A DNA stretch of 47,578 nucleotides from positions 2,837-50,414 of the forward strand of contig DMTS01000015.1 in assembly GCA_003477045.1 (NCBI GenBank), written 5' to 3'. This stretch comes from Candidatus Delongbacteria bacterium (GTDB lineage: Bacteria > UBA4055). Made by a program: the position numbers and the translations under genes. Positions 1 to 39,194 of the stretch are shown here, one piece after another (positions within the stretch are counted from its first letter, which is position 1; the number at the start of each line of letters is the position of its first letter). The notes under the pieces are model-generated. The model was not told the origin of the DNA and ran no database searches. It saw only the letters and a program-made list of their open reading frames with translations.

Positions 1-249
1 TATCAAAACTATCCGAACCCGTTCAATCCTGTTACACAGATAACATTTGATCTGGCTAAGACATCTGATGTTAAGCTCATTGTATATAACATCAGCGGGC
101 AGAAAGTTACAGAACTTGCTAATGGAGTTATGAATGCAGGCAATCACGCTGTTGATTTTGATGGCAGCAAATTGAATTCAGGAGTTTATTACTATACTCT
201 CAAGTCTAATGGCGCGACAATAACGAAAAAGTTGATTCTAACTAAATAA
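1..249 (+). CDS. 3' end of a secreted protein carrying a T9SS type-A C-terminal sorting domain (5' end lies outside the window)
   Basis: Frame 1 is open from base 1 to TAA at 247-249. The translation YQNYPNPFNPVTQITFDL...NSGVYYYTLKSNGATITKKLILTK fits the Por/T9SS CTD pattern. The same pattern occurs at three other C-termini in this window. Confidence 0.8.
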   Translation, partial: YQNYPNPFNPVTQITFDLAKTSDVKLIVYNISGQKVTELANGVMNAGNHAVDFDGSKLNSGVYYYTLKSNGATITKKLILTK

Positions 250-264: not shown

Positions 265-300
265 AACCGGACTGGAAATTACTGTCCGGTTTGATTATTT
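265..300 (+). terminator. Rho-independent terminator after the partial cargo gene
   Basis: Stem AACCGGAC (265-272) pairs with GTCCGGTT (284-291) around an 11-nt loop, followed by a T-rich tract. Confidence 0.6.
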
Positions 301-362
301 TCTCGGAAATCAAAAAATTTATCTGTATATTAAACTTAAGGAATGAACGCACGGAGAAAGAA

Positions 363-3263
363 ATGAAACGAATGCTGATAGTAATATTTTTTACAACCGT
401 AAATATATTGTTTTCCACAATCTATTATGTAACACAGAACGGAGGCGGAAATTTTGACGGTTCTGCCTGGGAAAATTCTTACCCGGGGGATTCGTTGCAA
501 GTAGCAATTGACAGCACACATAGAGGCGACGAGGTCTGGGTCGCAAAAGGAATATACAAACCTAATTCATGGCCTCATTCACTTTCTCCCGGTCCTGAAA
601 GAGAAATGTACTTTGCCATATACACAGATTTGTATGGCGGATTCAGTGGTTCTGAAATTGATATTTCACAAAGAGATTTAAAAAACAATGAAACTATATT
701 ATCTGGTGATATAGGTTTTGTAGGTGATAATTCTGACAATTGCTATCATATAATGACAAACGGTCGATACGGCTCAAATGTTACAGTAATAATTGATGGA
801 GTGACTTTTACAGGCGGTAACGCTGAAGATACCTATGGAACCGGTTCTGCTTTTTACAACCATGATTCTGAATTGACCATAAGGAATTGTACTTTTCACA
901 ATAATCATTCAATTTTTTTAGGTGGAGCTTTAGGAAATAGATATAATTATGATTATAATACTTATATGATCGTAGAAAACTGCTTATTTTATAACAATTC
1001 TTCAAGATATGGTGGAGCGATTTTCAGTAACGGAGAATCAACAATCATTACAAATTGTACTATTGTAAATAACACAGCCTATGATGACGGTGGAGGAATT
1101 TATCTTGCGACCGAAGAATACGAATGGGAAGTTCAATTTGGTGTTAATGAAGTTTCTAACAATATTATTTGGGGAAATAATTGCGATACACAAATTTATC
1201 AATATGATACAGGTTATATAAAATTTTATTTTAATGCTATACAGGATGGTTACAGTGGTTTTGGTAATTATTTTTTATCATCAAATAATGAAGGAGATAC
1301 CAATTCTCCTTATTTCACTGATACGGATAAGAATGACTGGACACTACAATCAACATCTCCGTGCATTGACTTCGGTGTATATTGGAATGCTCCTGAAACA
1401 GATATAAATTTAGCCCCGAGGCCTCAGGGTCTAATATATGATATTGGAGCTTATGAGTTTAAAAATACAGAACCAAATGCTACATTGCCATCAGTTTCAA
1501 CATTACCTGCTGAGAACATATCTGCTACATATGCAACTTTAAAAGGAGATGTAACGGATGAAGGTAATGCTCAGGTCATTGCAAAAGGAATAAAATACAG
1601 CACTAGTAACGGATTCGATCCTGAGACAGAAGGTAAACTCGTAAGGCTATTAGAGCTTATAGATGCAGGGGCGTTTGAGTTGTTTGTTACTAATTTATCT
1701 CCAAATACAATATACTACTACAGAGCATATTGTGAAAATAAATTTGGATATTCTTATGCAGATAATGAGCTTTCTTTTACGACTTCAGATTCTATAGTAA
1801 TAAACCCTGATGCAAACGGAATAGTATATATCAAAGAAGAAGGTACCGGAGATGGGTCATCCTGGAGCAATGCTTTAAATGGTTATGAATTACAGAACGG
1901 TATTGATCATCCTGATGCGACTGAAATATGGGTTGCAAAAGGTATTTATGTACCGAATGGCTGGCCTTTAGTAGATGTTTATCATGGAACTACCGAAAGA
2001 GAGAAGCACTTTAGAATAAGACCGAATAAAAAATTGTATGGCGGTTACAACGGTATTGAAACATCAATTGATCAAAGGGATATAAAAGAAAACGAAACCA
2101 TTCTATCAGGAGATATTGGAGTGAAAGGATATTCGGAAGATAACTGCTATCATGTAATCTATAATGGTGGCACATTAATAGACAATTCTGCTGTAATTGA
2201 CGGATTTACTATAACGGATGGCAATGCAGACGGTACATTAAGGTACAGCACGCTTTTGGGCGGTGGTATTTACAACCGGGCATGTTCACCCAGAATATCC
2301 AAATGCCTTATTAAGAATAATTATGCAATAGTAGGTGGTGGAGTTGCAGTTGGTTCAGACCCTGCTTATCCAATAATTGAAAATTGCACAGTTACAGGAA
2401 ACATTGCAGAATTATATGGAGGTGGTATTGAAAACGAAGGAGCATACCCCACAATTCAAAACTGCTTGATATCAAATAATACAGCCGGTAAAGAAGGAGG
2501 CGGCATTTACCATTGGGCGGAGTATATTACTTTTGGCGATTCAGACACACTCAAAATTTTTAATTCTACAATCGTAAAAAATATTGCCCCTATAGGAAGT
2601 GGGATTCAAATAAAAAGCGATTGTATGACAGGATTCAATCGTGAAATTATACAAAATAGTGTAATTTGGGGAGATTCTTCCGCATTCACATTTGAGTATG
2701 AAGCTCTATATGGCTCGATACAAACGATTTCATATTGCGGAATAACAGGCGGATACTCCGGTGAAGGAAATATTGACCTCTCTTCCGACAACTCAGGCGA
2801 TCCGAACTCGCCCTATTTCTCGGACCCTGAAAGCGGCAACTGGATGATTCAGGAATATTCACCGCTTCGGGACGCGGGAGTTTGGACTTCCAATGTGCCT
2901 TTATCTGATCTTGCCGGTTTTTCAAGAGACGCTATTCCAGATATAGGTTGTTATGAATACGATCCGACTTCAATTGAAGACACAGAATCGGTTCTGCCGC
3001 GCACTACCGAACTTTATCAGAATTATCCGAATCCTTTCAATCCGGCTACGAACATCAAGTTTGCTTTGAGCAAATCAGGTAAAGTTGAGTTGTCTGTTTT
3101 TAACATAGCTGGTCAGCTTGTGCGAAAAATTATTGATAAAGAAATGGCAGCTGGTTACCACAATGTAAAGTTCGAAGCGGATGATCTAAATTCCGGATTG
3201 TATTTCTACAAGCTCATAGCTGGCGGAAAAGAGCTTACAAAAAAGATGCTCATGGTAAAATAA
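363..3263 (+). CDS. Secreted right-handed beta-helix (Pmp-like GGAI/FxxN repeat) protein with internal duplication, an FN3-like insert and a T9SS CTD
   Basis: ORF 291-3263. I prefer ATG 363, which follows GGAG at 354-357 and starts a signal peptide (MKRMLIVIFFTTVNILFS); the TTG at 291 sits inside the upstream terminator. Repeats such as NNSSRYGGAIFSNG, DDGGGIYL, LYGGGIENEG and KEGGGIYHW are present. The C-terminus YQNYPNPFNPATNIKF...GLYFYKL (3015-3260) is a T9SS CTD. Confidence 0.8.
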   Translation: MKRMLIVIFFTTVNILFSTIYYVTQNGGGNFDGSAWENSYPGDSLQVAIDSTHRGDEVWVAKGIYKPNSWPHSLSPGPEREMYFAIYTDLYGGFSGSEIDISQRDLKNNETILSGDIGFVGDNSDNCYHIMTNGRYGSNVTVIIDGVTFTGGNAEDTYGTGSAFYNHDSELTIRNCTFHNNHSIFLGGALGNRYNYDYNTYMIVENCLFYNNSSRYGGAIFSNGESTIITNCTIVNNTAYDDGGGIYLATEEYEWEVQFGVNEVSNNIIWGNNCDTQIYQYDTGYIKFYFNAIQDGYSGFGNYFLSSNNEGDTNSPYFTDTDKNDWTLQSTSPCIDFGVYWNAPETDINLAPRPQGLIYDIGAYEFKNTEPNATLPSVSTLPAENISATYATLKGDVTDEGNAQVIAKGIKYSTSNGFDPETEGKLVRLLELIDAGAFELFVTNLSPNTIYYYRAYCENKFGYSYADNELSFTTSDSIVINPDANGIVYIKEEGTGDGSSWSNALNGYELQNGIDHPDATEIWVAKGIYVPNGWPLVDVYHGTTEREKHFRIRPNKKLYGGYNGIETSIDQRDIKENETILSGDIGVKGYSEDNCYHVIYNGGTLIDNSAVIDGFTITDGNADGTLRYSTLLGGGIYNRACSPRISKCLIKNNYAIVGGGVAVGSDPAYPIIENCTVTGNIAELYGGGIENEGAYPTIQNCLISNNTAGKEGGGIYHWAEYITFGDSDTLKIFNSTIVKNIAPIGSGIQIKSDCMTGFNREIIQNSVIWGDSSAFTFEYEALYGSIQTISYCGITGGYSGEGNIDLSSDNSGDPNSPYFSDPESGNWMIQEYSPLRDAGVWTSNVPLSDLAGFSRDAIPDIGCYEYDPTSIEDTESVLPRTTELYQNYPNPFNPATNIKFALSKSGKVELSVFNIAGQLVRKIIDKEMAAGYHNVKFEADDLNSGLYFYKLIAGGKELTKKMLMVK

Positions 3264-3300: not shown

Positions 3301-5826
3301 ATGAGAAAATTTCTTTTTTCATATTTTCTTTTGGTTTGCTTTTTTCTCTCCGCAGAAATGGCCGATCACGCTATCTACCCGAGCGGGGATCCATTGACAT
3401 CAGGGGGCTGGAAGGAACCTTCACCGGAACAGATGAAAATGATTGATTCCCTAAAAGTTTTTAAACCTGACAAATTTATTGTTAAAGACACTCTTCCAGA
3501 CAGCGTTGACAATTCGATAAGCGTTTATTTCAGACCAGTTTTTTCACAGTATGCGAATGAATGTGCTCAGGCAGCCGGTGTCGGTTACACTTTCACCTAT
3601 GAATTGAACAGGATGCGCGGTACAAACGCAAATTTCAATAAGAACCAATTCCCGCATTATTTTACATACAATTTCCTGAACAGCGGGAGCGAAGGTGAAG
3701 GATCAAATTATTTTGACGGCTGGGAGATCCTTAAACGGGAAGGCTGCCCTTACAATCAGGACTATGGGGGAATGGTGCCGACAGACGACCCTGATCTGAG
3801 AGAAATTCTCTGGATGACCGGGTACGATAAATACGAAAGGGCCATGGAGAACAGAGTATGCGAAGTGATCGCATTACCATGCGGAACTCCCGAAGGCCTT
3901 GATGACCTTAAAAGATGGCTTTTCGACCACGGTAACGGTTCAATTTACGGAGGCGTGGCAGTTTTTTCAGCCGGTGTCTTGTACACATGGCAGACAGATA
4001 CTCTTCATCAGAACACACCACATTCCGGAGAATCAGTTATTACTAAATGGCATACAACAGTCAATCACGCCATGACAATAGCTGGCTATAATGATTCTAT
4101 CCGCTATGACTATAACGGTGACGGAAGATTTACCAATGATCTTGATATCAACGGAGACTTGGTTGTTGATATGAAAGACTGGGAGATCGGAGCACTTCTA
4201 ATGGTCAACTCATGGGGTTACACATGGGGCGATAACGGCAGAAGCTGGGTAATGTATAATACGCTTGGATATAAGCACTGGGAAGGCGGTATCTGGACTC
4301 AGACTGCTCACGCAATCAACACTTTTGATTACTATACTCCCCTGCTAAAACTACGCGCTGAAATTGATTATCCCGACAGGAACAATCTTAAGATATACGC
4401 AGGTGTTTCTAGTGATTCCGGTTCTTTCAAACCCGATAAAATAATGGATTGCCTGATGCTTGATCACGCCGGCGGCAATTATCCTATGTCCGGTGATTCG
4501 TCTTATATTGACATAGGTCTTGATATTACTTCCCTTATTGCAGATATTGAAAACAATTCCGTAGCTGAAATATTTCTTTGTGTTGCTGAAAGAGATAGTT
4601 TTTTCACTTCAGTAGGAAAAATAATTTCGATGTCAGTTACTGATGAATGGGGCAATACTGTATCCTGTGCTGAAACTAATCTACAAATAGCAGATAATGA
4701 TACGACTTATTTGAGTGTAGTTCTTCCGGTATATTATAACACTCCTCTGATCACTGTAAGTGCATTACCGGAAATTATACCTGAGGAACCTTATTTTTTT
4801 CAAATGATATCAAGAGGCGGTCGGGATCCGTATAATTGGAATTTTATAATTGATTATACAGAAAATGAAAATACAAATGATTTCCCTTCGGGAGAATTCA
4901 CTGCTGCTGTTCTGCCCCATAACAACCCCGATAACGATATAATACCCGTCGAACTTGAATTCCGGTTCCCTTTTTTTGGAAACTTTTATGATTCTGTTTT
5001 TGTTTCTACAGACGGTTATATTTGTTTTGAAAATAAATATTACTACATTCAGGATGAGTTAAGCTTGATTGAAAATAAAGTGATAGCTCCTCATGCGGCA
5101 GAACTTACCTGCTATCCTACCAACGGAGACGGAATCTATTTTCTCTCGGCTATAAATTTCTTCACGGTTATATGGGATTCCGCTACAAGAACTGACAGCT
5201 TCGCAAATATAAAATTTGCTTGCAGAATTTACTCTGACGGAAAGATCGAATTCTTTCATGCCGACTATATTACTGAAGGCGCTGATTGGTATAGCGGAAT
5301 ATCAAACGGAGATTCTAAAAATTATATCATTTCCGGTATCAGCGGAATTTATGATCCGTCAGGAAAGAATATTACCCTTAATGCTCCTGATTTCCCTAAT
5401 GGTTTAGCTATAAATGGCTCCGGAGTTCTGTCAGGAACGATCCATGAATACGATAAATCATGGATTCTTAAAATCAGGATCACAGACTGGAATGGAATAT
5501 CATCTGAAAAAGAGATCGGCATCTCATCCTCTACTGCTATGGAAGAAGAAACCGTTTCCGATAAAGATTTTTTTATGAACTTTCCCAACCCGTTTAATTC
5601 CGTTACAGAAATCAGGTTCAGCTTGAACCAAAGCGGAAATTTTTCTCTGATTATCTTTAATTCAAGCGGGCAGATAGCTTGCAAGATATTTGATAACAGT
5701 TTTTTAAAAAAAGGAACCCACACTTTAGTTTGGCGACCCGAAAATTATTCTTCAGGTATTTATTACTCAATACTGACGGACGGATCTGGAAGTTCATTCT
5801 GCTGCAAAATGCTTCTTTTAAAATAA
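3301..5826 (+). CDS. Paralog P1: secreted multidomain papain-fold (C1-like) cysteine peptidase with a NIDO-like module and a T9SS CTD
   Basis: Signal peptide MRKFLFSYFLLVCFFLSA. Catalytic-type motifs are Q-x4-C (FSQYANECAQAAG, Cys codon 3562), VNHAMTIAGYNDS (His codon 4066) and MVNSWGYTWG (Asn codon 4207). The C-terminus NFPNPFNSVTEIRFSL...GIYYSIL (5569-5823) is a T9SS CTD. Confidence 0.75.
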   Translation: MRKFLFSYFLLVCFFLSAEMADHAIYPSGDPLTSGGWKEPSPEQMKMIDSLKVFKPDKFIVKDTLPDSVDNSISVYFRPVFSQYANECAQAAGVGYTFTYELNRMRGTNANFNKNQFPHYFTYNFLNSGSEGEGSNYFDGWEILKREGCPYNQDYGGMVPTDDPDLREILWMTGYDKYERAMENRVCEVIALPCGTPEGLDDLKRWLFDHGNGSIYGGVAVFSAGVLYTWQTDTLHQNTPHSGESVITKWHTTVNHAMTIAGYNDSIRYDYNGDGRFTNDLDINGDLVVDMKDWEIGALLMVNSWGYTWGDNGRSWVMYNTLGYKHWEGGIWTQTAHAINTFDYYTPLLKLRAEIDYPDRNNLKIYAGVSSDSGSFKPDKIMDCLMLDHAGGNYPMSGDSSYIDIGLDITSLIADIENNSVAEIFLCVAERDSFFTSVGKIISMSVTDEWGNTVSCAETNLQIADNDTTYLSVVLPVYYNTPLITVSALPEIIPEEPYFFQMISRGGRDPYNWNFIIDYTENENTNDFPSGEFTAAVLPHNNPDNDIIPVELEFRFPFFGNFYDSVFVSTDGYICFENKYYYIQDELSLIENKVIAPHAAELTCYPTNGDGIYFLSAINFFTVIWDSATRTDSFANIKFACRIYSDGKIEFFHADYITEGADWYSGISNGDSKNYIISGISGIYDPSGKNITLNAPDFPNGLAINGSGVLSGTIHEYDKSWILKIRITDWNGISSEKEIGISSSTAMEEETVSDKDFFMNFPNPFNSVTEIRFSLNQSGNFSLIIFNSSGQIACKIFDNSFLKKGTHTLVWRPENYSSGIYYSILTDGSGSSFCCKMLLLK

Positions 5827-5892
5827 TTTTTATTTCTATTTACAATTTTATCCGCTTTTGTTACTATTTAGTAAAATATTTTGGAGAAAAAA

Positions 5893-8343
5893 ATGAAAAT
5901 ATCTGTATTAGCAGCCTTAATAATTGTAAACTCCTTTCTGTTCGGTGAGCTCTATAACGCAAACCCCGATCCTTACGGAGATCCATGGATCGTGGGCGGA
6001 GTTTCCGAACCGACACCCGAGCAGATGGCCAGATTCAATGCAATTCCTAAACTTGTCTTACCGGATACTTACAAAGACAGAAAGGACCCTCTCCCGTCAT
6101 CAATTGACAACTCCCTGCTGCCCTATTTCAGACCGGTTTTCACCCAAAAGAACGGAAGCTGCGGACAGGCAAGCGGAGTAGGCTATAATTTTACTTATGA
6201 AATAAATCTTGAAAGAGGAACTGCAGCAAATGTACTTGTAAATCAGTTTCCTACTCATCATACCTATAATTTTCTGAACGACGGGTATGACAACGGATCG
6301 TGGTACTTTGACGGATGGGAAATCATCAAAGCCAACGGCGTACCGGATTGCGATACTTATGGCGGCATGTATCCGCTCGTTAATACTGCCGTGACATGGA
6401 TGAACGGCTACGAGGGCTGGGATATCGGTATGAATAATCGCGTTAAAGAGCTCATCAATATTCAGGTCGGCACTCCCGAAGGTCTTCTAACTCTAAAACA
6501 ATGGTTTATAGACCATGCAGACGGTTCCACAAACGGAGGTGTAGTCAATTTTGCTGCGGGAGTTTCCGGCGAGTACTGGACAGGAACGCTTCCTGCAGGC
6601 ACCCCCAACGCAGGTCAATATGTTATAAAGATGTGGGGCTCTGTAATGAATCATGCGATGACATTTACGGGTTACGATGATTCTATCAGGGTAGATTACA
6701 ATAACGACGGCCGGTACACCAATGATCTCGATATCACCGGTGATGAAATTGTTGATATGAAAGACTGGGAGATCGGCGGACTCAGAATGGTTAATTCATG
6801 GGGAACAACATGGGGCAATTCCGGAAAAGCGTGGGTAATGTACCGTACGCTGGCATTAGATATATCAGAAGGCGGTATCTGGAATAATGTCGTTAGCTCA
6901 ATCAGAGTTAAAGAATCGTTTACTCCGACATTAAAACTCAAAGCTGTAGTGAATCATAACGAAAGAACTGATGTAAAGATCTTTGCAGGTGTAGCTTCAG
7001 ATACATCTGCAACTTTTCCTGAACACATACTCCCATTCCCGCTATTCGTTTATCAGGGAGGATATTATGGAATGGTAGGCGATACGAACGAAATTGAATT
7101 CGGACTGGATATTACACCTCTTCTCGCTTATGTAAATCCGGATGAGCCTGTAAAATATTTTATATGTTTAAATGAAGTTGACCCCTATAATTACGGCGAA
7201 GGTGAGATAATTTCATTCTCTGTAATTGATGCTGATTCAAATGAGACCGTTTCTGCCCAGTCCCCCGTTTACATTGAAAATAATGCAACAACATATATGT
7301 CGCTGATAAAATCTTCAAGTTTTAATCCGCCTGAGATTGTAACTGGTTCGTTGCCTACAGCTACTCAAAACGAATTATATTCTTACGATCTGACTGCTCA
7401 GAACGGTTCTGCTCCTTATGCTTGGAGAATCAAATACGATTATGCTCAAATTGATAATATTTCAAATTTTCAGGAAGAGGCGGACAGTCTGCTGATCACT
7501 AATGATGATGATGACGGTTTCGGTATAATTGATCTTGACTTCGAGTTCCCGTTCTACGGAAAACTTTATGATCAGATTACTATCTCAACAAACGGTTCAA
7601 TACTTTTCGGCGGCGTTTTTGAATTTATTACTACAGAAGTAAATATTATGTCGGCAAGAAATATTACACCCTACGCAGCTGATCTGGCAAGCGTTTCTTC
7701 TTACGGTGAAGGTATTTTCTTTTATAAAAATACCGAATATATCGAAGTAAGATGGATAACATCCACTTATTTAGATACTGAAGCAAGTATTGATTTCGCT
7801 GCAAAATTGTATTCATCTGGAAATATCGAATTCTTTTACGGAGAAAATTTGTCAACTGAAATCATCTGGGCTTCAGGAATTTCTGACGGAAATGAAAATA
7901 ATTGTCTTATGTCCTGTTTGTCAAATACAAATGATCCTTCAGGTTTGAAAACAAAATTTATCGTTTCGGACTTTCCGTATGGAATGGGACTGAGCGAATC
8001 CGGTGTTTTCGGCGGAACTTTAACCTGCACTCCAAATACATGGAATATTATGTTCAGTGTTACAGATCTCAATAACATATCTTCGCTGAAGGTACTTCCT
8101 TTCTCACTGATTGCGCCGATGGGTATTCCCGGAAATATCAGCGTCGCCGCTTCTGTTTCATCGGCTATACTTACATGGGACGCTGTTTCGGGTGCTACTG
8201 TCTATAACATTTACAGATCAAATCTTCCTTATGGAACTTATACTAAGTTAGGAACTTCTCCCACACCGCCTTATGAAGACACAGAAATATCCGGTTCAAA
8301 TAAGTATTTCTATTACATAACTGCGGATAATCTTAAAAAATAA
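5893..8343 (+). CDS. Paralog P2: secreted multidomain papain-fold (C1-like) cysteine peptidase with a NIDO-like module and a terminal FN3-like domain (no T9SS CTD)
   Basis: ORF 5881-8343. I prefer ATG 5893 after GGAG (5883-5886), giving the signal peptide MKISVLAALIIVNSFLFG. Motifs are FTQKNGSCGQASG (Cys codon 6160), MNHAMTFTGYDDS and MVNSWGTTWG. The C-terminal 76 aa (8113-8340), ILTWDAVSGATVYNIYRS...KYFYYITADN, look FN3-like. Confidence 0.75.
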   Translation: MKISVLAALIIVNSFLFGELYNANPDPYGDPWIVGGVSEPTPEQMARFNAIPKLVLPDTYKDRKDPLPSSIDNSLLPYFRPVFTQKNGSCGQASGVGYNFTYEINLERGTAANVLVNQFPTHHTYNFLNDGYDNGSWYFDGWEIIKANGVPDCDTYGGMYPLVNTAVTWMNGYEGWDIGMNNRVKELINIQVGTPEGLLTLKQWFIDHADGSTNGGVVNFAAGVSGEYWTGTLPAGTPNAGQYVIKMWGSVMNHAMTFTGYDDSIRVDYNNDGRYTNDLDITGDEIVDMKDWEIGGLRMVNSWGTTWGNSGKAWVMYRTLALDISEGGIWNNVVSSIRVKESFTPTLKLKAVVNHNERTDVKIFAGVASDTSATFPEHILPFPLFVYQGGYYGMVGDTNEIEFGLDITPLLAYVNPDEPVKYFICLNEVDPYNYGEGEIISFSVIDADSNETVSAQSPVYIENNATTYMSLIKSSSFNPPEIVTGSLPTATQNELYSYDLTAQNGSAPYAWRIKYDYAQIDNISNFQEEADSLLITNDDDDGFGIIDLDFEFPFYGKLYDQITISTNGSILFGGVFEFITTEVNIMSARNITPYAADLASVSSYGEGIFFYKNTEYIEVRWITSTYLDTEASIDFAAKLYSSGNIEFFYGENLSTEIIWASGISDGNENNCLMSCLSNTNDPSGLKTKFIVSDFPYGMGLSESGVFGGTLTCTPNTWNIMFSVTDLNNISSLKVLPFSLIAPMGIPGNISVAASVSSAILTWDAVSGATVYNIYRSNLPYGTYTKLGTSPTPPYEDTEISGSNKYFYYITADNLKK

Positions 8344-8364
8344 TTCTTGGTTAAACATCGAATT

Positions 8365-8404
8365 AAAGGAAATTGTTAACTTTACAATTTCCTTTTCTTT
8401 TATT
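8365..8404 (+). terminator. Rho-independent terminator after P2
   Basis: Perfect 12-bp stem AAAGGAAATTGT (8365-8376) / ACAATTTCCTTT (8384-8395) with a 7-nt loop, followed by TCTTTTATT. Confidence 0.75.
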
Positions 8405-8443
8405 ATATTCAGATAATTGAAAAAAATTAAAAGGATGTATTCC

Positions 8444-10912
8444 ATGAAAAAAATATCGATAATCTTAGTAGCTTTACTCGCACACCTTATGTTCGCTGAC
8501 CTGATAAATATGAACCCCGATCCGAACGGTGAGCCGTGGTGGGCCGGCGGATGGAAAAATCCGACTGCGGATGAACAGACACAAATTGATGCTTTACCGA
8601 AACTGACTTTACCCGATTCATATAAGAACAGTAAAGCAAAACTGGCTTACGCGCTTGACAACTCTGTTAACCAGTATTTCAGACCTATATTCAACCAGGT
8701 CGGCGGTAGCTGCGCTCAGGCAAGCGGAATTGCATATAATATGACTTATGAGATGAATTTCGTAAGAGGAACCACGGCAAATGTTACAGCCAATCAGCTT
8801 CCGAGCCATTTCACATACAACTATCTGAATGACGGTTCAGGTGCGAACGGTTCAACTTATTTTCAGGGTTGGGACATTGCAAAGAACTGCGGAGTCCCTG
8901 ATGTAGCAACCTACGGCGGATATTTGTGGCCAACGACGAACACAACTTATCAGAATCTTCTCTGGAAGGACGGGTTCCCGGTATATCAGACGGGAATGAA
9001 CAACCGTGTTTCTGAAGTGATCCAGATCCCTGTCGGTACACCTGAAGGGCTTGCAACTTTAAAACAGTATTTTAACGACCACTGCGACGGTTCATCGGCA
9101 GGAGGAATAGTTAACTTTTCCGCCGGAGTGAGCTATACATTCGCAACAAGCACATTACCTGCGGGAACTGAAAACGCCGGCCAGACCGTAGTTTTAAACT
9201 GGGACCCGATCGTTAATCATGCTATGACCTTCGCAGGTTACAATGACTCTATCAGATATGATTTCAACAGCGATGGAAGATACACGAATGATATTGATAT
9301 TAACGGAGACAGCGTTGTTGACATGAAAGACTGGGAAAAAGGCGCCGTACTGATGGTCAATTCGTGGGGTACTACATGGGGAACGCTTGGAAAAGCATGG
9401 GCACCTTACAGAACGCTTGCCTTATCTCTTGCTGACGGCGGGATCAACAACAACACTGTTTACACTATGAAAGTTAAGAACTCATTCGTACCGCAGCTGA
9501 AACTCAAAGCTACAGTTACTTACAGTGACAGAAAAGAGCTTAAGATCTATGCGGGTGTTTCAACTGATACAACAGCTTCAGTTCCTCAATATACCGTTTC
9601 ATTTCCGATATTTAACTATCAGGGCGGAACAAATATAAAAATGGTTGGCGATACTGACAGTACGATCGAGCTTGGGCTTGATATCAGTTCGCTACTGAGC
9701 TATGTAGACAGTGCTCAGCGTGTTAAATATTTTATCTGCGTCGAGCAGAAGGATGCCGGTGGGGCCGGAACAGGAAGAATCGTTTCTATGGCTGTTGTTG
9801 ATGAAAATGCAGTCACGAAAACGAGTTCACAATCGAATGTAACTATAGTTACGAACTCAACAACATATATGAGCGTAATTACCGGAACGAGCTTCAATCA
9901 GCCTTCTATAACAAATTCTTCGCTGCCTGACGCACAGTCTGGAATACCTTACAGCGAACAGCTTTCTGTAAGTAATGGAGCTTCCCCTTTTGTATGGGAT
10001 ACGCTTTATGACTATACAGAAACGGCAAATTCAAATTTATTTCCTACAGAAGCCGTAAATCCGCTGACTACGAACAGCGACGACGACGGGATCGCAAGAG
10101 TTGACCTTGACTTCGATTTTCCTTTCTACGGTAAACTTTACGATCATATAACAGTGTGCACCGACGGCTCAATTCTATTCGGGGATGAATTTGTTTATGT
10201 CAGAAATGAAGGCGATATTATAGCTACGAGAGCAATTACGGTTTATTCTCAGGATCTTCAGGCTTATCCTGTTGACGGAGACGGTATCTTTTATTATAAA
10301 AATGCCGATCATCTTACGGTAAGGTGGAAAACATCAATATGCGGCGTGCAGACTGCGAATCTTGAATTCGCGGTTAAAATTTATTCAAACTCGAACATTG
10401 AATTCTTTTATGGAACAGGTATGACGACAGGGCTCGTCTGGTCGGCAGGAGTTTCTAACGGAAGCTCTGCGGATTGTAAGATCTCTCAATATGCAAACAC
10501 AAGTAATCCTTCAGGATTAAAAACCGGATTTACTACAACCGACTACCCTTACGGCATGGAACTAAGCTCCGGTGGAATTTTCAGCGGCACTTTGAACGGG
10601 ACAGACGATACATGGAATATTAAATTCAGAGTGACCGACAGCAATAATATTTCAGACATCAAGATAATTCCATTTACTCTTATCTCTGCTCCCGGAACCC
10701 CCGCGATCACAAGCTTTAATGCTACTTCCTCTTCAGCGACGATCGTATGGGATGCGGTTATCGGAGCGTCTTCTTACAGAATTTACAGATCCGTTCAACC
10801 GTATTCGGGATTTGCTTTCCTTGATACTTCTTCTTCTACATCGTACACGGACAATAATATTTTATCTGGCAATAAATACTTCTACTATATAACTGCCGAC
10901 AATGCAAAATAA
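8444..10912 (+). CDS. Paralog P3: secreted multidomain papain-fold (C1-like) cysteine peptidase with a NIDO-like module and a terminal FN3-like domain (no T9SS CTD)
   Basis: ORF 8417-10912. I prefer ATG 8444 (AAGGA at 8431-8435), giving the signal peptide MKKISIILVALLAHLMFA. Motifs are FNQVGGSCAQASG (Cys codon 8711), VNHAMTFAGYNDS and MVNSWGTTWG. The C-terminal 74 aa (10688-10909), IVWDAVIGASSYRIYRS...KYFYYITADN, look FN3-like. Confidence 0.75.
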   Translation: MKKISIILVALLAHLMFADLINMNPDPNGEPWWAGGWKNPTADEQTQIDALPKLTLPDSYKNSKAKLAYALDNSVNQYFRPIFNQVGGSCAQASGIAYNMTYEMNFVRGTTANVTANQLPSHFTYNYLNDGSGANGSTYFQGWDIAKNCGVPDVATYGGYLWPTTNTTYQNLLWKDGFPVYQTGMNNRVSEVIQIPVGTPEGLATLKQYFNDHCDGSSAGGIVNFSAGVSYTFATSTLPAGTENAGQTVVLNWDPIVNHAMTFAGYNDSIRYDFNSDGRYTNDIDINGDSVVDMKDWEKGAVLMVNSWGTTWGTLGKAWAPYRTLALSLADGGINNNTVYTMKVKNSFVPQLKLKATVTYSDRKELKIYAGVSTDTTASVPQYTVSFPIFNYQGGTNIKMVGDTDSTIELGLDISSLLSYVDSAQRVKYFICVEQKDAGGAGTGRIVSMAVVDENAVTKTSSQSNVTIVTNSTTYMSVITGTSFNQPSITNSSLPDAQSGIPYSEQLSVSNGASPFVWDTLYDYTETANSNLFPTEAVNPLTTNSDDDGIARVDLDFDFPFYGKLYDHITVCTDGSILFGDEFVYVRNEGDIIATRAITVYSQDLQAYPVDGDGIFYYKNADHLTVRWKTSICGVQTANLEFAVKIYSNSNIEFFYGTGMTTGLVWSAGVSNGSSADCKISQYANTSNPSGLKTGFTTTDYPYGMELSSGGIFSGTLNGTDDTWNIKFRVTDSNNISDIKIIPFTLISAPGTPAITSFNATSSSATIVWDAVIGASSYRIYRSVQPYSGFAFLDTSSSTSYTDNNILSGNKYFYYITADNAK

Positions 10913-10922
10913 GGAGCTTAAC

Positions 10923-13445
10923 ATGAAGAAATCAATATTGCTGCTTTCGATCTCATTGTTTTTTATGGCTAATGCTGAACTTATAAATATGAACCCTGAT
11001 CCTAACGGTGAGCCATGGTGGGCAGGAGGCTGGAAAATGCCTGATGCAGAAGAAATGCAGCGGATCGAAGCCATTCCAAAGTTGACTCTGTCTAATAAAT
11101 ACAAAGGTAAAGAGATACCATATAAACTGGACAACTCAGTATTGCCCTATTTCAGACCGATATTCAACCAAATGGGCGGAAGCTGCGCGCAGGCAAGCGG
11201 GATCGGTTATAATTTCACTTATGAAATGAATTACATTAACGGAACAAGCGCAAATGTTACGGATAATCAGTACCCTACTCATTATACATACAATTTCCTT
11301 AACGGAGGCTCAGGTGATAACGGCTCAACTTACTTTGGAGGATGGGATATAATTAATGCAGGTGGAATTCCTAATGTAACGACCTACGGCGGATTATGGC
11401 CTTCTACCGATCCATTGACAATGAATAAAATTTGGATGGGCGGCTTTGATAATTACTTGTCCGGAATGGAGAAAAGGATCGTAGAAGTTCTGACGATCCC
11501 CGTAGGAACTCCAGAAGGACTTCAGACGCTAAAACAGTATTTTAACGATTATTGCGACGGGTCGCCGACAGGAGGTATCGTGAATTTTGCTGCCGGGGTA
11601 AGCTGGGTCGAGATCGATCCTCTTCCCGCAGGAACAGAAGAAGCCGGAAAATCTCTGCTCTGGAAATGGGATTCTGCAGTTAATCATGCGATGACTTTCG
11701 TAGGATATAACGACTCTATAAGATTTGATATGAACGGTGACGGCCGTTTTACTAATGACCTTGATATAACAGGGGACGGTGAAGTTAATATGAAAGACTG
11801 GGAGATCGGAGGTCTTTTAATGGCGAATTCGTGGGGATCTGGCTGGGTTGATTTCGGAAAGATCTGGGTCGCCTACAGAACTCTAGCTCTCGCTCTTGAG
11901 GAAGGCGGAATATGGATGAACGCAGTTCACACCATTAGAGTGAGAGATGATTTTTCTCCGAGCCTGTACATGAAATCCACAATAAATTTCAGCGACAGAG
12001 AAGAATTGAAAATTTATGCGGGTGTATCGTCTGATACGACAGCAACGGTCCCCGAATATTATGTGCAGTTCCCTCACTTTAACTATCAGGGCGGAGCTTT
12101 CGGAATGAACGGCATAGATAATATACTTGAGCTCGGTATAGATATAAGCCCGCTCTTAACTTATATAAACCCGAATGAAAAAGCTAAATTTTTCATTTGT
12201 GTAGAACACAAAGAGAAAGATACTGCAGGAAGAGGAAGCATTACTTCGTTTTCTATACTTGACAAAACTCTGAACGAGTATGTCAGCCCCCAGACGGCTG
12301 TAGCCATAACAAAAAACTCAACCACTTACCTTTCTGTTATCGCTTCGGTTGATTTTGACGCGCCTGTTATAGACGACATCGTTATTCCGGTTTCTGATCC
12401 CGGAATTCCATATTCATACGCGCTGTCAGCATCAGGAGGAATGCCTCCATACAAATGGGATGTTATCTGCGAATACTCGGAAGTTGAAAACACCGGAGAT
12501 TTCTACCTTAACACTGAAACATCTCTTGAAATGACAAATGACGACGACGGATACGCAGTTATCGAACTTCCGTTCCAGTTCCCGTTCTACGGAAAATTAT
12601 ATGACAAAGTTACTGTAATCACTGACGGATCAATAAAACTTGAAGACGGCTTTGATTATATAAGAACGGAAGGTGATATTCTGGCTTTTAAGACCATAAC
12701 TGCATACGGCGCTGATCTGATGGCGTACCCTGCGGACGGAGATGGCGTATATTATGCAGTGAATGACAGCTGTCTGACAGTCAGATGGATAACTTCACTG
12801 TACGATGTTCAGGAAGTGGATCTTGATTTCGAGACCAGAATTTATTCCGACTCAAGAATAGAATTTTTCTACGGAGATTCATTAACGACCGGGATAGCTT
12901 GGGCTTCGGGAATTTCAAACGGGAAAGTAACAGACGCGGTTATTTCTTCGATTTCAAACATCTCTAATGCTTCAGGGATGAAAACGGCATTCTCTACCGT
13001 TCCTTACCCTTACGGTTTAGAACTAAGCACCGACGGGATTTTCAGCGGAACAACTTTTGAAGCCGACAAGTCATGGAATATTTTATTTCGCATTACGGAC
13101 GACCAAAATATTTCTAACTTGAAGCAGCTTACTTTTTCGACAGCTGCCGGGATAGAGAACGCTGAATTCACAGCGAATGATTTCGTTCTTGAACAAAATT
13201 ATCCGAACCCTTTCAACCCTTCAACAAAGATCAGATTCGATCTGAAAATCTCTCAGCAGGTTTCTCTGACAATATATAACACTACCGGTGAGATCGTAGA
13301 AACGCTGATCGATAAAAAAATGCTTCATCAGGGCGATCATTCATTTGAATGGAAAGCCGATAAACTTTCATCTGGGGTTTATTATTTCGGTCTAAGATCT
13401 GAGAATGGAATAAAACAGATAAGAAAAATGACGGTTTTAAAATAA
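10923..13445 (+). CDS. Paralog P4: secreted multidomain papain-fold (C1-like) cysteine peptidase with a NIDO-like module and a T9SS CTD
   Basis: ORF 10902-13445. I prefer ATG 10923, six nt after AAGGAG (10911-10916), giving the signal peptide MKKSILLLSISLFFMANA. Motifs are FNQMGGSCAQASG (Cys codon 11184), VNHAMTFVGYNDS and MANSWGSGW. The C-terminus QNYPNPFNPSTKIRFDL...GVYYFGL (13188-13442) is a T9SS CTD. Confidence 0.75.
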   Translation: MKKSILLLSISLFFMANAELINMNPDPNGEPWWAGGWKMPDAEEMQRIEAIPKLTLSNKYKGKEIPYKLDNSVLPYFRPIFNQMGGSCAQASGIGYNFTYEMNYINGTSANVTDNQYPTHYTYNFLNGGSGDNGSTYFGGWDIINAGGIPNVTTYGGLWPSTDPLTMNKIWMGGFDNYLSGMEKRIVEVLTIPVGTPEGLQTLKQYFNDYCDGSPTGGIVNFAAGVSWVEIDPLPAGTEEAGKSLLWKWDSAVNHAMTFVGYNDSIRFDMNGDGRFTNDLDITGDGEVNMKDWEIGGLLMANSWGSGWVDFGKIWVAYRTLALALEEGGIWMNAVHTIRVRDDFSPSLYMKSTINFSDREELKIYAGVSSDTTATVPEYYVQFPHFNYQGGAFGMNGIDNILELGIDISPLLTYINPNEKAKFFICVEHKEKDTAGRGSITSFSILDKTLNEYVSPQTAVAITKNSTTYLSVIASVDFDAPVIDDIVIPVSDPGIPYSYALSASGGMPPYKWDVICEYSEVENTGDFYLNTETSLEMTNDDDGYAVIELPFQFPFYGKLYDKVTVITDGSIKLEDGFDYIRTEGDILAFKTITAYGADLMAYPADGDGVYYAVNDSCLTVRWITSLYDVQEVDLDFETRIYSDSRIEFFYGDSLTTGIAWASGISNGKVTDAVISSISNISNASGMKTAFSTVPYPYGLELSTDGIFSGTTFEADKSWNILFRITDDQNISNLKQLTFSTAAGIENAEFTANDFVLEQNYPNPFNPSTKIRFDLKISQQVSLTIYNTTGEIVETLIDKKMLHQGDHSFEWKADKLSSGVYYFGLRSENGIKQIRKMTVLK

Positions 13446-13541: not shown

Positions 13542-13745
13542 GTGATACACATAAAAGTTAGAGACGGCGAACATTTTGAAAAAGCCCTTAAAAGATTTAC
13601 AAAAACTTTTGAGAAAAGCGGAGTTTTAGCTGAACTCAGATTAAGAGAAAGATACGAAAAACCGACTTGGGTTAACAGAAGAGAAAGAATTCAGGCTACA
13701 AGAAAGCAGCAGAAGATCCAGAGAATGCAGAACAGAGGATTTTAA
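13542..13745 (+). CDS. rpsU: 30S ribosomal protein S21
   Basis: The 67-aa basic protein [38 protein letters not shown]... matches the S21 pattern. It has a GTG start nine nt after GGAGGAGG (13525-13532). Confidence 0.9.
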
Positions 13746-13831: not shown

Positions 13832-14512
13832 ATGAATTATATCGATATTTTAGTGCTCGTTATAATAGCATTCTATGAGTTTGTCGGTTTCTGGAAAGGT
13901 TTTATTCCCCAGCTTTTTCAGTTCGCGGGAATATTCTGCGCGTTCTATTTTAATACTCCAATGAGTAGTTTCATCTCGAAAATTATCTCTGAAGAACCCG
14001 AAGGAGTGATCCTGATGCTGGTTCAGACCGCGGCCTTTTTCATTATTTTCGCGGTATTTTATGTAATCGGTAAGACCTTGAGTAAAACTTTCGACATACT
14101 TCTTACTTCTATCCCGAACAGAATAGCGGGAATAATTTTCGGAGCTTTGAACGGTTTTCTGGTAGTCTGCTTCCTTTTTCTGATCGTCAGATCAATAGGT
14201 TCTGGAGATGAATACCTTAAAAAACATGTTACTCCCGACAGATTTACCGATGAATTAATTAACAAAGGTCTGGATCTTACCGCTGCGGATGAAATGAAGA
14301 TCGAACCGGATATAAATGCGGAAGAACAGGGAAAAACATATTCCAGACTCGGTTACGGAGCTTACCGCATTTCAATGATGATGGACCCTTTTGTAGTCAA
14401 CATGAAAAAGATCTTTAAGAAAAAATACGACGACATTATCGAGATCAAAGTCAGCGAAAAGATCGAAGATCTGAAAGATTCTCTTAAAGCTGACAGTTTA
14501 TTTCAAAAATAA
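13832..14512 (+). CDS. cvpA: CvpA-family integral membrane protein
   Basis: The N-terminus MNYIDILVLVIIAFYEFVGFWKGFIPQLFQFAGIF plus about four hydrophobic helices is typical of colicin V production (CvpA) family proteins. GGGAG lies upstream of the ATG. Confidence 0.6.
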   Translation: MNYIDILVLVIIAFYEFVGFWKGFIPQLFQFAGIFCAFYFNTPMSSFISKIISEEPEGVILMLVQTAAFFIIFAVFYVIGKTLSKTFDILLTSIPNRIAGIIFGALNGFLVVCFLFLIVRSIGSGDEYLKKHVTPDRFTDELINKGLDLTAADEMKIEPDINAEEQGKTYSRLGYGAYRISMMMDPFVVNMKKIFKKKYDDIIEIKVSEKIEDLKDSLKADSLFQK

Positions 14513-14527: not shown

Positions 14528-16978
14528 ATGGAAACAAATTACTCTTCAAGAATGCATAAAGTTTTAGAACTTTCCAAAGAAATAACTCTTCAGCTCGGCC
14601 ATGACACGGTTTACCCGGGACATCTTGCACTTGGTATTATCAGATTGAACGAAGGCACCGCTTTTAATATTCTGACAAAACTTAATTGCGACATTACCTC
14701 GCTTCAGAAAGACATCGCGAACGGCATGGCAAGGAACAAAGAGCTCATAAAACTGGGTTTTATACCTCTCAGCCATGAAAGCGACAGAATAATAACTCAG
14801 GCTGTTCAGGAAGCAGTTGAACTTAACAGTATATATACAGGAACCGAACACCTGCTTCTTTCTCTGACTAAGGCTGTAAATACATATACTGAAAGGATCC
14901 TGAGATTTCATGGAATTACATACCAGCGCGTAAAACAGGTGCTGATCACAGGCGCAACTTCGAAAATGAATAAAGTTCCTTACGAAAAGATGGAACCTCA
15001 GGCGGAATTCTCTCTCGAGATGTTCTCGCACGACATTACAGCCCTGGCCAAAGACGGCAAGCTCGACCCTGTTATCGGGAGATCCGAAGAGATCGATAGA
15101 ATAGTGCAAATACTGTCAAGAAGAAAAAAGAACAATCCTATACTTATCGGAGAACCGGGAACAGGAAAAACCGCTATAGTCGAAGGACTTGCTCTAAAGA
15201 TAATAGAAAAATCTGTCCCGTCAGTTCTGCTCGGAAAAAGAATCCTGGGTCTTGATATGGGTATGCTGATAGCAGGAACGAAATACCGTGGTCAGTTCGA
15301 AGAAAGAATAAAAGCTGTAATAAAGGAAATTGAGAGCGATAGAAATACGATCTTATTTCTCGATGAGATTCATACAATAGTTGGAGCCGGCAGCACATCC
15401 GGATCGATGGATGCTTCAAATATGTTCAAACCCGCACTGGCACGGGGTGATATACAGTGCATAGGAGCAACGACTTTGGATGAATACAGGACAACAATCG
15501 AAAAGGATGGAGCTCTGGAAAGAAGATTCCAGAAAGTTCTGGTTGATCCGCCTTCAGTTTCAGAGACATTTGAAATACTGAAAGGACTTCAGTCCAAATA
15601 TGAAAATCACCATAAGGTCAAATACTCAGACGAAAGCCTTGTGGCCGCTGCCGAACTTAGCGACAGATATATCACCGAAAGATTTCTTCCGGACAAAGCT
15701 ATTGATGTCATTGATGAAGCAGGCGCCAAAAAACACCTTTCAATAAAAGTCCCCGCTAAAATCACTGAGCTCGAAGATCAGATAGAGATACTTAATAAAG
15801 AAAAAAATCAGAAGATCGAAAAACAGATGTTCGAAAAAGCTGCCGTACTCAGAGACAAGATCAACGATCTGCGATCAAAACTCGAAAAAGAAAGAGAACA
15901 TTGGCATAAATCCGTTTCAAATAAATTTCTGAATATATCTGTTGATAATATCAGAGACATCATTTCCATGATGACATCTATCCCGATAAGCAAGCTTGAA
16001 GTGTCGGAAAGCAACAGGCTTAACAGGATCTCCAGATCGATCTCAAAAAGGATAATCGACCAGCACGAAGCTGTTGAGTCGGTTATAAGAAGGGTTAAAA
16101 GATCTAGAACCGGGTTTAAAGATCCTAAAAGACCGATAGGGTCATTTTTGTTTCTCGGTCCTACAGGCGTCGGCAAGACCGAACTTGCGAAAGTGCTTTC
16201 TGAAGAGATATTTGAGAATGACAGAGCGCTTATCAAGATAGACATGAGCGAATACATGGAAAAATTCAATGTCTCGAGAATGATCGGTTCACCGCCCGGT
16301 TACATAGGTTACGGTGAAGGCGGGCAGCTTAGCGAAAAGGTCAGAAGGCATCCGTACTCAGTAGTGCTTTTCGATGAGATCGAAAAAGCCCATCCCGATG
16401 TTTTCGGAATGCTTCTTCAGGTACTTGACGAAGGTGTTCTGACTGACGGCAACGGCCGCAAAGTAGATTTTAAGAACACGATCATAATTTTCACATCGAA
16501 TATCGGCACAAAGAACCTTTCAAATACTGAAAATATCGGATTCGGAAGTAAAACCTCTTTTGAAGAAAAAGAGATCAAAATGAAAGATACTACAAGAAAA
16601 ACGGTCGAAAAGTATTTCAAACCCGAATTTCTAAATAGAATAGACGAGGTGATCGTCTTCAATCATCTTTCTGAAAATGCGGTACTTCAGATTATTTCAA
16701 ATCACATAGAAGCATCCTGCGAAAAGCTTTCGAAAATCGATATTACTCTCAATATATCTCCCAAAGTCAGAAAATATATAATGGAAGAATTTTACGACGC
16801 CGAAAGCGGTGCGAGACCTTTAAAAAGAGCTGTCGAGAATCTGATCGAGGATCCCGTAGCAGAAAGAATAATTTCCGGGCATGTCAGATATGGGGATACT
16901 ATCAGCATTGCTGTAAGCAAAAATAAATTGGTCTATACCAAAACTGATAAAACTACCGTAAGTTACGAAAAAAATTAA
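14528..16978 (+). CDS. clpC: ATP-dependent Clp protease ATP-binding subunit ClpC (class I AAA+ unfoldase)
   Basis: It has an N-terminal Clp_N-type repeat and two Walker A motifs ([16 protein letters not shown]). The middle coiled-coil is short and the protein is 816 aa long. An IGF-type ClpP-docking loop (ENIGFGS) is present. Confidence 0.85.
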
Positions 16979-30644: not shown

Positions 30645-30660
30645 AGCAAAGGAGATTCAG

Positions 30661-37052: not shown

Positions 37053-37074
37053 CATATTACTAATAAAGATACAC

Positions 37075-37103
37075 TTGACAAACATACTTTATGTATATAT
37101 ATT
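37075..37103 (+). promoter_or_regulatory. Sigma70-like promoter with AT palindromes upstream of the toxin-antitoxin pair
   Basis: TTGACA (37075-37080), a 17-nt spacer, then TATATT (37098-37103). GTATATA occurs twice (37093-37099, 37106-37112), and the second copy is part of the perfect palindrome GTATATAC. AAAGGAGG is the SD before ATG 37129. Confidence 0.5.
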
Positions 37104-37128
37104 TCGTATATACTAAAAGGAGGTAATA

Positions 37129-37359
37129 ATGAAAACTCTTTCTCTAAAAATCGAAGATGCGATCCTAGAAGAAACGAATAAAATTCTTGAAAGCTTGAAG
37201 AAACCCAGAAACAGATACATAAACGAGGCAGTCGAAAATTACAACAAGATTCAGAAAAGAGCTTTGATCACGAAAATGCTGGCTAACGAATCTAAGCTTG
37301 TAAGAAAAGAATCTCTCCATGTATTAAAAGAATTCGAGGACATAAATGATGAAGATTAA
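37129..37359 (+). CDS. Ribbon-helix-helix (CopG-like) antitoxin
   Basis: A 76-aa protein with LSLKIEDAILEETNKILESL...RNRYINEAVENY (RHH pattern) and an acidic C-terminus. It overlaps the toxin gene by 14 nt. Confidence 0.7.
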   Translation: MKTLSLKIEDAILEETNKILESLKKPRNRYINEAVENYNKIQKRALITKMLANESKLVRKESLHVLKEFEDINDED

Positions 37360-37696: not shown

Positions 37697-37700
37697 TTGA

Positions 37701-37728
37701 CTGAGAATTTATGCATAAATTACCTCAG
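37701..37728. repeat. Imperfect 28-nt palindrome immediately after mazF
   Basis: CTGAGAATTTATGCATAAATTACCTCAG has a perfect 16-nt core palindrome, AATTTATGCATAAATT. No T-run follows it. Confidence 0.5.
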
Positions 37729-37764
37729 CATCAAAAGTTAGGATTCTGTGTAAGGAAACCGGTT

Positions 37765-39105: not shown

Positions 39106-39194
39106 TCTCCTCCTTATGTGACTCATATCACAGAACATTCTTTCAGTTTCGCTTAATATTCACTTAAGAACTTATTCCGGGGAGGGAATAAACC

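Follow-up and report, generated by a model that had tools for sequence, protein, structure and literature searches.

A tandem array of multidomain proteins with a predicted papain-like head in Candidatus Delongbacteria

Introduction

Several groups of cysteine peptidases are close enough to the proteins described here to serve as points of comparison. Xylellain from Xylella fastidiosa (PDB 3ois) is a bacterial papain-fold peptidase of a single domain that is recognized by standard C1 models, and calpains (family C2) are clan CA cysteine peptidases with a Ca2+-binding papain-like core. To our knowledge, the protease repertoire of the type IX secretion system (T9SS) so far consists of gingipains, C10 enzymes, and metalloproteases. 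Gingipains (family C25) have a caspase-like clan CD fold, the C10 enzymes (PrtT, periodontain, interpain) belong to clan CA, and both have large prodomains; we know of no C10 enzyme that carries an NSWG motif. Here, we investigated four consecutive genes in a 47,578-nucleotide stretch of a Candidatus Delongbacteria genome (GTDB lineage UBA4055; assembly GCA_003477045.1, contig DMTS01000015.1, positions 2,837 to 50,414 of the forward strand), which we call the window. We found that the four proteins, W1 to W4, are paralogs whose N-terminal heads are supported as remote homologs of the papain fold (C1, clan CA), although they fail the curated C1 sequence model. The reading we favor, at a probability of about 0.78, is that W1–W4 are Sec-exported extracellular or surface cysteine endopeptidases with a papain-like head and that the array diversifies their substrate range for protein degradation.

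Results

Four paralogs share a set of papain-type residues

All four genes lie on the forward strand. Gene 1 (3301–5826) encodes W1, a protein of 841 residues with a signal peptide, a papain-like head, beta-sandwich and Ig modules, and a T9SS type A C-terminal domain (CTD). Gene 2 (5893–8343, with an alternative TTG start at 5881) and gene 3 (8444–10912, alternative TTG at 8417) encode W2 (816 residues) and W3 (822 residues), in which the head and middle modules are followed by an fn3-like C-terminal domain. Gene 4 (10923–13445, alternative ATG at 10902) encodes W4 (840 residues), which has the head and middle modules and again ends in a T9SS type A CTD. An AAGGAG Shine-Dalgarno motif 7 nucleotides ahead of the ATG at 10923 supports that start for gene 4, and the database gene call for gene 3 has 822 residues and thus supports the start at 8444. 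By inspection, each N-terminus looks like a Sec-type leader: basic residues at the start are followed by a hydrophobic core and by a cleavage site of the A/G-x-A/E type.

Chance is excluded as the source of the similarity among the four proteins. In a four-way alignment, mean column identity is 65% over ~840 columns; W2, W3, and W4 are each 40–42% identical to the product of gene 1, and the N-terminal domains are mutually 49–65% identical. Six residues of interest are invariant across the alignment (Q83, C88, H256, N303, S304, and W305 in gene 1 numbering). The codons of the putative catalytic residues, listed from W1 to W4, begin at 3562, 6160, 8711, and 11184 for Cys, at 4066, 6652, 9218, and 11685 for His, and at 4207, 6793, 9359, and 11826 for Asn; the Gln codon of W3 is at 8696 (all + strand). 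An initial annotation, made from the letters of the window, had described four same-strand paralogs with Sec signal peptides and papain-type motifs. The open reading frames and translations agree with that description, its Cys codons are exact, and the motifs it quoted are present (FSQYANECAQAAG, FTQKNGSCGQASG, FNQVGGSCAQASG, FNQMGGSCAQASG, NHAMT..GY, and NSWG).

The head is predicted to adopt a papain fold

The papain-like domain of W3, supported by an AlphaFold2 model, Foldseek, and hhalign, spans 8642–9493 (residues ~67–350), and the equivalent domains lie at 3493–4341 in W1, 6091–6927 in W2, and 11115–11960 in W4 (all + strand). Residues 20–350 of gene 3, modeled by AlphaFold2 from an alignment of 44 homologs, gave a mean predicted local distance difference test (pLDDT) score of 84.5 and a predicted template modeling (pTM) score of 0.87. 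When this model was compared with the PDB by Foldseek, 257 matches were obtained at E ≤ 1e-3. The top 50 were without exception C1 papain-family peptidases (probability 1.00, 12–17% identity, E from 2e-9 to 5e-8), as the initial annotation would have it, and included cathepsins K, L, S, B, H, X, and C, rhodesain, Der f 1, and xylellain. The best was procerain B (E = 2.2e-9), with a target-normalized TM-score of 0.76, the highest obtained. The match to xylellain (E = 2.2e-8, query-normalized TM-score 0.53) runs over 340 columns and takes in part of the N-terminal extension of the head. The predicted fold is thus two-lobed like that of papain and other C1A enzymes (Foldseek E ~1e-9), in which a helical left-hand (L) subdomain holds the central helix and a right-hand (R) subdomain forms a beta-barrel.

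The likeness extends to the order of Gln, Cys, His, and Asn-Ser-Trp-Gly and to their places in the secondary structure. In the W3 head model, Cys71 is the first residue of a helix (71–89), His falls in a strand (235–252), and Asn follows another (280–286); these predicted positions are those of the papain residues. As supporting evidence, hhalign aligned a profile of 147 family sequences with four C1A sequences in a single collinear stretch of 196 columns (probability 88%, E = 2.9e-6), which pairs Q66 with papain Q19, C71 with C25, H240 with H159, and N287/S288/W289 with N175/S176/W177. The lead-in of the family, LP.S.D...PV.NQ, aligns with the N-terminus of papain. In local alignments, the Gln/Cys block LP.S.DNS...FRPVFNQ.GGSC fell onto IPEYVDWR...TPVKNQGSCGSC of the four-sequence C1A profile (probability 84.6%), and in the His/Asn block NHAMT..GY fell onto DHAVAAVGY and NSWG onto NSWG of papain (probability 57–65%).

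How well are these residues conserved beyond the array? Among 146 family representatives that are pairwise at most 50% identical, Cys and His are each present in 146 of 146, Gln in 145, and Asn in 141. Weak Pfam matches to Peptidase_C1 were found in 7 of 44 relatives (best E = 1.1e-4), and one distant relative, P0165, came within half a bit of the cut-off on the part of the model that covers His and Asn (20.2 against 20.7 bits). The proposal of the initial annotation that the heads are papain-fold peptidases is therefore supported because of the predicted fold, the profile–profile alignment, and the invariance of Cys and His, and not by library searches, the route that the annotation had suggested.

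This conservation bears on two other readings of the head. In the first, the four proteins would be non-catalytic adhesins or pseudo-enzymes built on a papain-like scaffold. About 60% of each protein consists of binding-type beta modules, and activity of the heads is a matter of prediction. However, pseudo-enzymes normally lose their catalytic residues, whereas here Cys and His never vary, Gln and Asn are nearly invariant, and all four are kept in W1–W4. We gave this reading next to no weight and ruled it out on residue invariance. In the second, the head would be a clan CA amidase, transglutaminase, or acyltransferase (of the NlpC/P60, CHAP, or transglutaminase-like kind) that acts on peptidoglycan, lipoproteins, or glycoconjugates. 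The low identity to C1 in the structural matches and the missing Pfam match leave room for such an enzyme, as do the non-canonical spacing of Gln and Cys and the carbohydrate- or adhesin-type modules that stand beside the head in relatives. Yet none of the top 50 structural matches is an NlpC/P60, CHAP, or transglutaminase structure, and the full C1-specific set (Gln, Cys, His, Asn-Ser-Trp-Gly, and LP.S.D) aligns to papain and is conserved. We therefore consider a non-peptidase activity improbable and retain the papain-type peptidase as the preferred reading of the head.

The family departs from papain C1A enzymes in several respects. At 12–17% identity, it stays under the threshold of the Pfam model PF00112. 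Judged from the sequence, none of the three conserved C1A disulfides is present, and the family alignment has no conserved Cys pairs. In place of an I29 prodomain, there is an N-terminal extension of ~45 residues, from the signal peptide to LP.S.D; within it, only the closer subfamily conserves an NPDPNGEPW motif, which is modeled at low confidence. The stretch from Cys to His is longer by ~35 residues, and an EF-hand-like insertion of 31 residues separates His from Asn. A C-terminal extension of ~480 residues follows the head, and the proteins have predicted T9SS targeting. Because the curated C1 sequence model failed and because of these family-specific features, we do not file the family as ordinary C1; it probably represents either a new subfamily of C1 or, within clan CA, a sister family.

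The other described systems also differ from the window proteins. Compared with single-domain xylellain, W1–W4 are multidomain; they have the acidic insertion and end in either a CTD or an fn3 tail. Gingipains and the T9SS C10 enzymes share with them the order of signal peptide, N-terminal cysteine-protease head, Ig or adhesin modules, and CTD, and one relative in the family carries a gingipain-type Cleaved_Adhesin domain. However, no C10 enzyme is among the top 50 Foldseek matches, and the large prodomain of gingipains and C10 enzymes is not seen in the window proteins. The statement of the initial annotation that the architecture cannot be mapped onto any characterized C1 enzyme stands.

The residue directly before the catalytic Cys (codons 3559, 6157, 8708, and 11181) divides the family: it is Ser in 92, Glu in 23, and Cys in 18 of the 146 representatives. 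Glu at this position gives the ANEC active-site motif of W1, which belongs to a distinct subfamily. A second Cys (GCC) occurs in many Bacteroidales; a vicinal Cys-Cys pair is uncommon at an active site and might have a bearing on redox chemistry.

An acidic loop lies between His and Asn

In W3, the strands that bear the putative catalytic His and Asn are separated by an acidic insertion of 31 residues (9245–9337), presumed to be a double Ca2+-binding loop. Equivalent insertions are found at 4093–4185 in W1, 6679–6771 in W2, and 11712–11804 in W4 (all + strand). The insertion follows the pattern D-x-N-x-D-G-x-x-T-N-x-x-D-I-N-G-D-x-x-V-D-M-K-D-W-E and stands opposite a gap in papain in the hhalign alignments. 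Its acidic, Asn, and Gly positions are 94–99% conserved in the 146 representatives. When the insertion alone was compared with the PDB by phmmer, 30 of 34 matches were EF-hand or dockerin Ca2+-binding loops; these matches are weak, with E from 0.006 up. The second half, D-I-N-G-D-G-V-V-D-M-K-D, conforms to the canonical EF-hand loop of 12 residues, and EF-hand_5 matches (Pfam) occur in 5 of 44 relatives. On these patterns, it is reasonable to infer that the insertion binds Ca2+. Calpains, with their Ca2+-binding core, offer an analogy, but their Ca2+ sites and penta-EF-hand domains lie elsewhere, and calpain appeared neither as a sequence match nor as a top structural match for the window proteins.

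Middle modules and C-terminal tails

The order of the middle modules is identical in W1–W4. In W3, this non-catalytic region (9494–10693, + strand) begins with a beta-sandwich (residues ~351–485) and continues with a He_PIG-like Ig domain that appears to be split by a NIDO-like module. The NIDO-like module comprises ~155 residues and shows, by eye, the pattern FPFYG...STDGSI.F. The first half of the Ig domain reads LP.A..G..Y...L.A.GG..PY.W, and the second half reads FP.GM.L...G.F.GT....W.I.F.VTD. The two "Ig-like segments" of the initial annotation thus appear, from these patterns, to be the halves of one He_PIG-type domain interrupted by the NIDO-like module.

An AlphaFold2 model of the C-terminal part of gene 3 (residues 346–822, 477 residues) is all-beta, with a pLDDT of 91.5. 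Foldseek returned only generic strings of Ig and fn3 domains for it (PTP-delta Ig-Fn, titin, and fibronectin, TM-scores of 0.1–0.3) and assigned no specific function to the beta-sandwich or NIDO-like modules. Pfam scans of 44 family members detected Por_Secre_tail in 33 (best E = 1.9e-15), He_PIG (PF05345) in 11 (best E = 2.7e-6), NIDO (PF06119) in 3 (best E = 7.5e-3), and fn3 in 1 (best E = 6.2e-3). In W1–W4 themselves, neither the He_PIG nor the NIDO profile matched; several homologs carry a precomputed PF05345 annotation. The domain guesses of the initial annotation were therefore broadly right, with weak support.

The four proteins end in two different ways. The CTD of W4 (13200–13442, + strand) scores above the cut-offs of both Por_Secre_tail (PF18962; 34.1 against 27 bits) and TIGR04183 (28.9 against 23). 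That of W1 (5581–5823, + strand) falls just below them (25.9 and 21.9 bits, respectively), shows the typical PNPF...G.YY...K motifs, and is detected by a local hidden Markov model (HMM) of the CTD. In a PDB profile search, the solved Por CTDs 8glk and 8glj were matched weakly (E ~0.1). In W3, the position of the CTD is taken by the fn3-like domain (10694–10909), modeled with six beta-strands; the equivalent in W2 lies at 8122–8340 (both + strand). The initial annotation implied that all four genes encode T9SS cargo, which fits genes 1 and 4, which have a CTD, and not genes 2 and 3, which end in the fn3-like domain. By local HMMs, 200 of 271 family proteins carry the CTD, and the fn3-like tail is present in 31 family proteins, always at the extreme C-terminus and never together with a CTD. 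The several CTD proteins in the window would imply that the genome encodes the T9SS machinery.

How might proteins with an fn3-like tail reach the surface? On every contig that is long enough (L001, L002, L003, L006, L008, and L014), the fn3-tailed paralogs sit immediately upstream of a CTD-bearing paralog. Because of this arrangement, we considered that proteins of the W2/W3 type may be exported through T9SS piggy-back, in a hetero-oligomeric Ca2+-dependent protease complex with a CTD-bearing partner, or that the fn3-like domain is itself an unrecognized T9SS signal. We regard this idea as a long shot. If true, it would represent a new mode of T9SS cargo recognition on a new clan CA family.

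The family is large and mainly confined to phyla with T9SS

Gene 3 has at least 663 homologs, all annotated as "hypothetical protein" or "T9SS type A sorting domain-containing protein," and the closest (83–90% identity) come from metagenome-assembled genomes of Candidatus Delongbacteria. When the profile of the head alone was searched exhaustively, at least 2,448 cluster representatives (50% identity) were found at E ≤ 1e-3, 651 of them at E ≤ 1e-30. The family is therefore large and widespread, not rare. The head is always N-terminal, in proteins of 262–3,175 residues. It is encoded at no fewer than 571 loci of GTDB species genomes, in Delongbacteria, Bacteroidales, Flavobacteriales, Lentimicrobiaceae, Cloacimonadota, Neomarinimicrobiota, Chlorobiota, and Fibrobacterota, so that the family is essentially limited to phyla of the Fibrobacterota–Chlorobiota–Bacteroidota (FCB) group that use T9SS. 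In distant members, the head is joined to PKD, cadherin, or GEVED repeats, to dockerin and cohesin, to a gingipain-type Cleaved_Adhesin domain, or to a beta-helix, followed by a CTD. Such a variety of modules is expected of a secreted degradative enzyme. We found no description of the family in the literature on T9SS, papain-type peptidases, or Delongbacteria.

One family member, an open reading frame of 1139 residues whose best BLASTP match among the window proteins is W2 (42% identity), lies on a contig binned as Gammaproteobacteria (L084, QZLE01000055.1). This occurrence outside the FCB group reflects either a binning error or lateral transfer.

The array is conserved in related genomes, its upstream neighbors are not

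Arrays of two to four copies occur in related Delongbacteria contigs, as a survey suggested by the initial annotation shows, immediately upstream of rpsU-cvpA-clpC. The window has the same order, with rpsU at 13542–13745, cvpA at 13832–14512, and clpC at 14528–16978. The array of contig L001 consists of a W3-like (83%) and a W4-like gene (61%). That of L002 has two W2-like genes (83% and 78%), a W3-like (90%), and a W4-like gene (92%), and that of L006 has a W1-like gene (49%), a 624-residue relative, a W3-like (66%), and a W4-like gene (55%). W1-like orthologs (49–55% identity) are found in L006, L015, and L045. Since arrays of two to four copies occupy one position in several Delongbacteria, the duplications are old. 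The gene is found as a tandem pair in Cloacimonadota (L053), too, and in several Bacteroidales (L017, L021, L028, L050, and L070); other Bacteroidales carry it singly, in a neighborhood of housekeeping genes.

Two T9SS cargo genes lie directly upstream of the array in the window, as the initial annotation had noted. The first is a CTD tail that runs off the start of the window (1–249), and the second (291–3263) encodes a beta-helix protein of ~970 residues that carries two choice-of-anchor Q domains along with PMP repeats and a Por_Secre_tail CTD (both + strand). The suggestion of a dedicated locus was only partly right, and a conserved place of the two cargo genes in it is not supported. Both are absent from the syntenic position in L001 and L002, where the upstream genes are different (SIS-domain, hypothetical, and helicase genes), and we rejected a dedicated operon with the upstream cargo genes on this ground.

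These neighbors matter for another reading, in which W1–W4 are proteases with a role other than nutrition. They might process or shed T9SS cargo and surface proteins, attack other cells by antagonism or predation, or break down the matrix of a host or biofilm, with the CTD-bearing beta-helix neighbors as substrates or partners. The position of the two cargo genes in the window would suit such a role, and so would the protein-binding Ig and NIDO-like modules and the gingipain-type Cleaved_Adhesin domain of the one relative. Against it, the cargo genes are not kept beside the array in L001 and L002, the lone copies of Bacteroidales stand in a housekeeping context, and no specific partner is conserved. 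We consider a non-nutritional role unlikely, if somewhat less so than a non-peptidase head, and extracellular protein degradation is the most likely physiological role.

Other features of the window

Between genes 2 and 3, a terminator-like hairpin (8365–8395, + strand) consists of a 12-bp stem followed by a T-run and is overlapped by a promoter-like site (8381–8409). The four paralogs may therefore not form one transcription unit, with a break between genes 2 and 3. Genes 3 and 4 are only 10 nucleotides apart, without a comparable hairpin. The hairpin is a match to a consensus and a weak lead, as the promoter and terminator scan of the window was near background (47 promoter-like sites against 42 expected).

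Further downstream, 27702–33888 (+ strand) encodes a 980-residue DUF748 protein (E = 7.5e-185) whose gene overlaps by 14 nucleotides that of a 1085-residue tricorn-like protease with a PD40 beta-propeller and Tricorn_C1, PDZ_Tricorn, and Peptidase_S41 domains. Next come genes for a small protein with a CarboxypepD_reg domain and for an S13 D-Ala-D-Ala carboxypeptidase. At 41080–42606 (+ strand) lies a gene for a 508-residue protein with a Peptidase_C25 (gingipain/PorU-type) match (E = 7e-10; score 39 bits, cut-off 23), far shorter than gingipains or PorU. We considered it as the T9SS sortase PorU, but it has no NCBIfam match and is not recognizable as such; the presence of T9SS is not established by this gene. 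Between these, a 464-residue protein made almost wholly of ankyrin repeats is encoded at 37711–39105 (+ strand), in the stretch of lowest GC content (38001–40000, 0.327 against ~0.40) and between unusually long non-coding gaps (37053–37710 and 39106–39677). This gene may have been acquired.

Discussion

We propose that W1–W4 are exported by Sec and that their signal peptides are then cleaved. The CTDs of W1 and W4 would be recognized by T9SS, and the proteins would be released or attached to the cell surface. The ~285-residue N-terminal head would be the endopeptidase unit. In it, the Cys with which the central helix begins would form a thiolate–imidazolium pair with the His, the Gln five positions ahead of the Cys would provide the oxyanion hole, and Asn-Ser-Trp would orient and shield the His. 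The acidic loop probably binds Ca2+ in the extracellular milieu and would stabilize or gate the right-hand (R) beta-barrel subdomain that bears His and Asn. The beta-sandwich, He_PIG-like Ig, and NIDO-like modules probably are spacers or bind substrates or surfaces. Finally, the array would have arisen by old tandem duplications that were kept across Delongbacteria and would widen the substrate range of an anaerobe that scavenges proteins and amino acids. The tricorn-type S41 protease and the C25-family protein in the window fit a proteolytic lifestyle. Within this proposal, the paralogy, the predicted fold, the conservation of the residues, the CTDs, the spread of the family, and the synteny come directly from the analysis; activity of the enzymes, Ca2+ binding, the route of secretion, and the role in physiology are deduced from them.

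Several observations weigh against this proposal. Pfam and NCBIfam scans of W1–W4 returned no peptidase family, and Peptidase_C1 was absent even at E ≤ 1; by simple HMM searches, the check named in the initial annotation, the C1 assignment formally fails. PDB sequence searches with profiles of 4, 44, and 21 sequences gave nothing significant, with ficin and ervatamin appearing around NSWG at E = 0.35–0.6. The C1A template sequences for hhalign were entered by hand, which makes hhalign supporting and not stand-alone evidence, and its probabilities of 57–88% by themselves are suggestive, not conclusive. The juxtaposition of Cys, His, and Asn was judged from secondary-structure placement and fold superposition scores only. 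The family has Gln-x4-Cys, one residue shorter than the Gln-x5-Cys of C1, and no Inhibitor_I29 prodomain was matched by Pfam in W1–W4, which leaves the control of latency unexplained. W2 and W3 are without a CTD by Pfam, NCBIfam, and the local HMM, so that "extracellular" is not established for them, and no T9SS machinery gene lies within the 47.6-kb window. The nutritional role, moreover, is inferred from lifestyle and domain logic only.

What does the family mean for the bacteria that encode it? Fold, chemistry, and secretion route each belong to a known kind, and no new principle is involved. If the heads are active, a papain-type class would join the T9SS protease repertoire, and inventories based on Pfam and MEROPS HMMs would undercount the extracellular cysteine peptidases of these phyla. 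The conserved EF-hand-like insertion between His and Asn would then allow Ca2+ control to be tested in an enzyme of the C1-like kind, and the prodomain-less design would raise the question of latency. Sizeable as it is, the family has been overlooked in peptidase annotation, and it presents two testable oddities, the Ca2+ loop and the paralogs without a CTD. With our analysis, many proteins now labeled only "hypothetical" or "T9SS sorting domain-containing" gain a clue to their function. They occur in Delongbacteria, Bacteroidota, Cloacimonadota, Neomarinimicrobiota, Fibrobacterota, and genomes of the Chlorobiota/Ignavibacteria type, lineages that matter for the turnover of protein and necromass in anoxic sediments, digesters, and guts.

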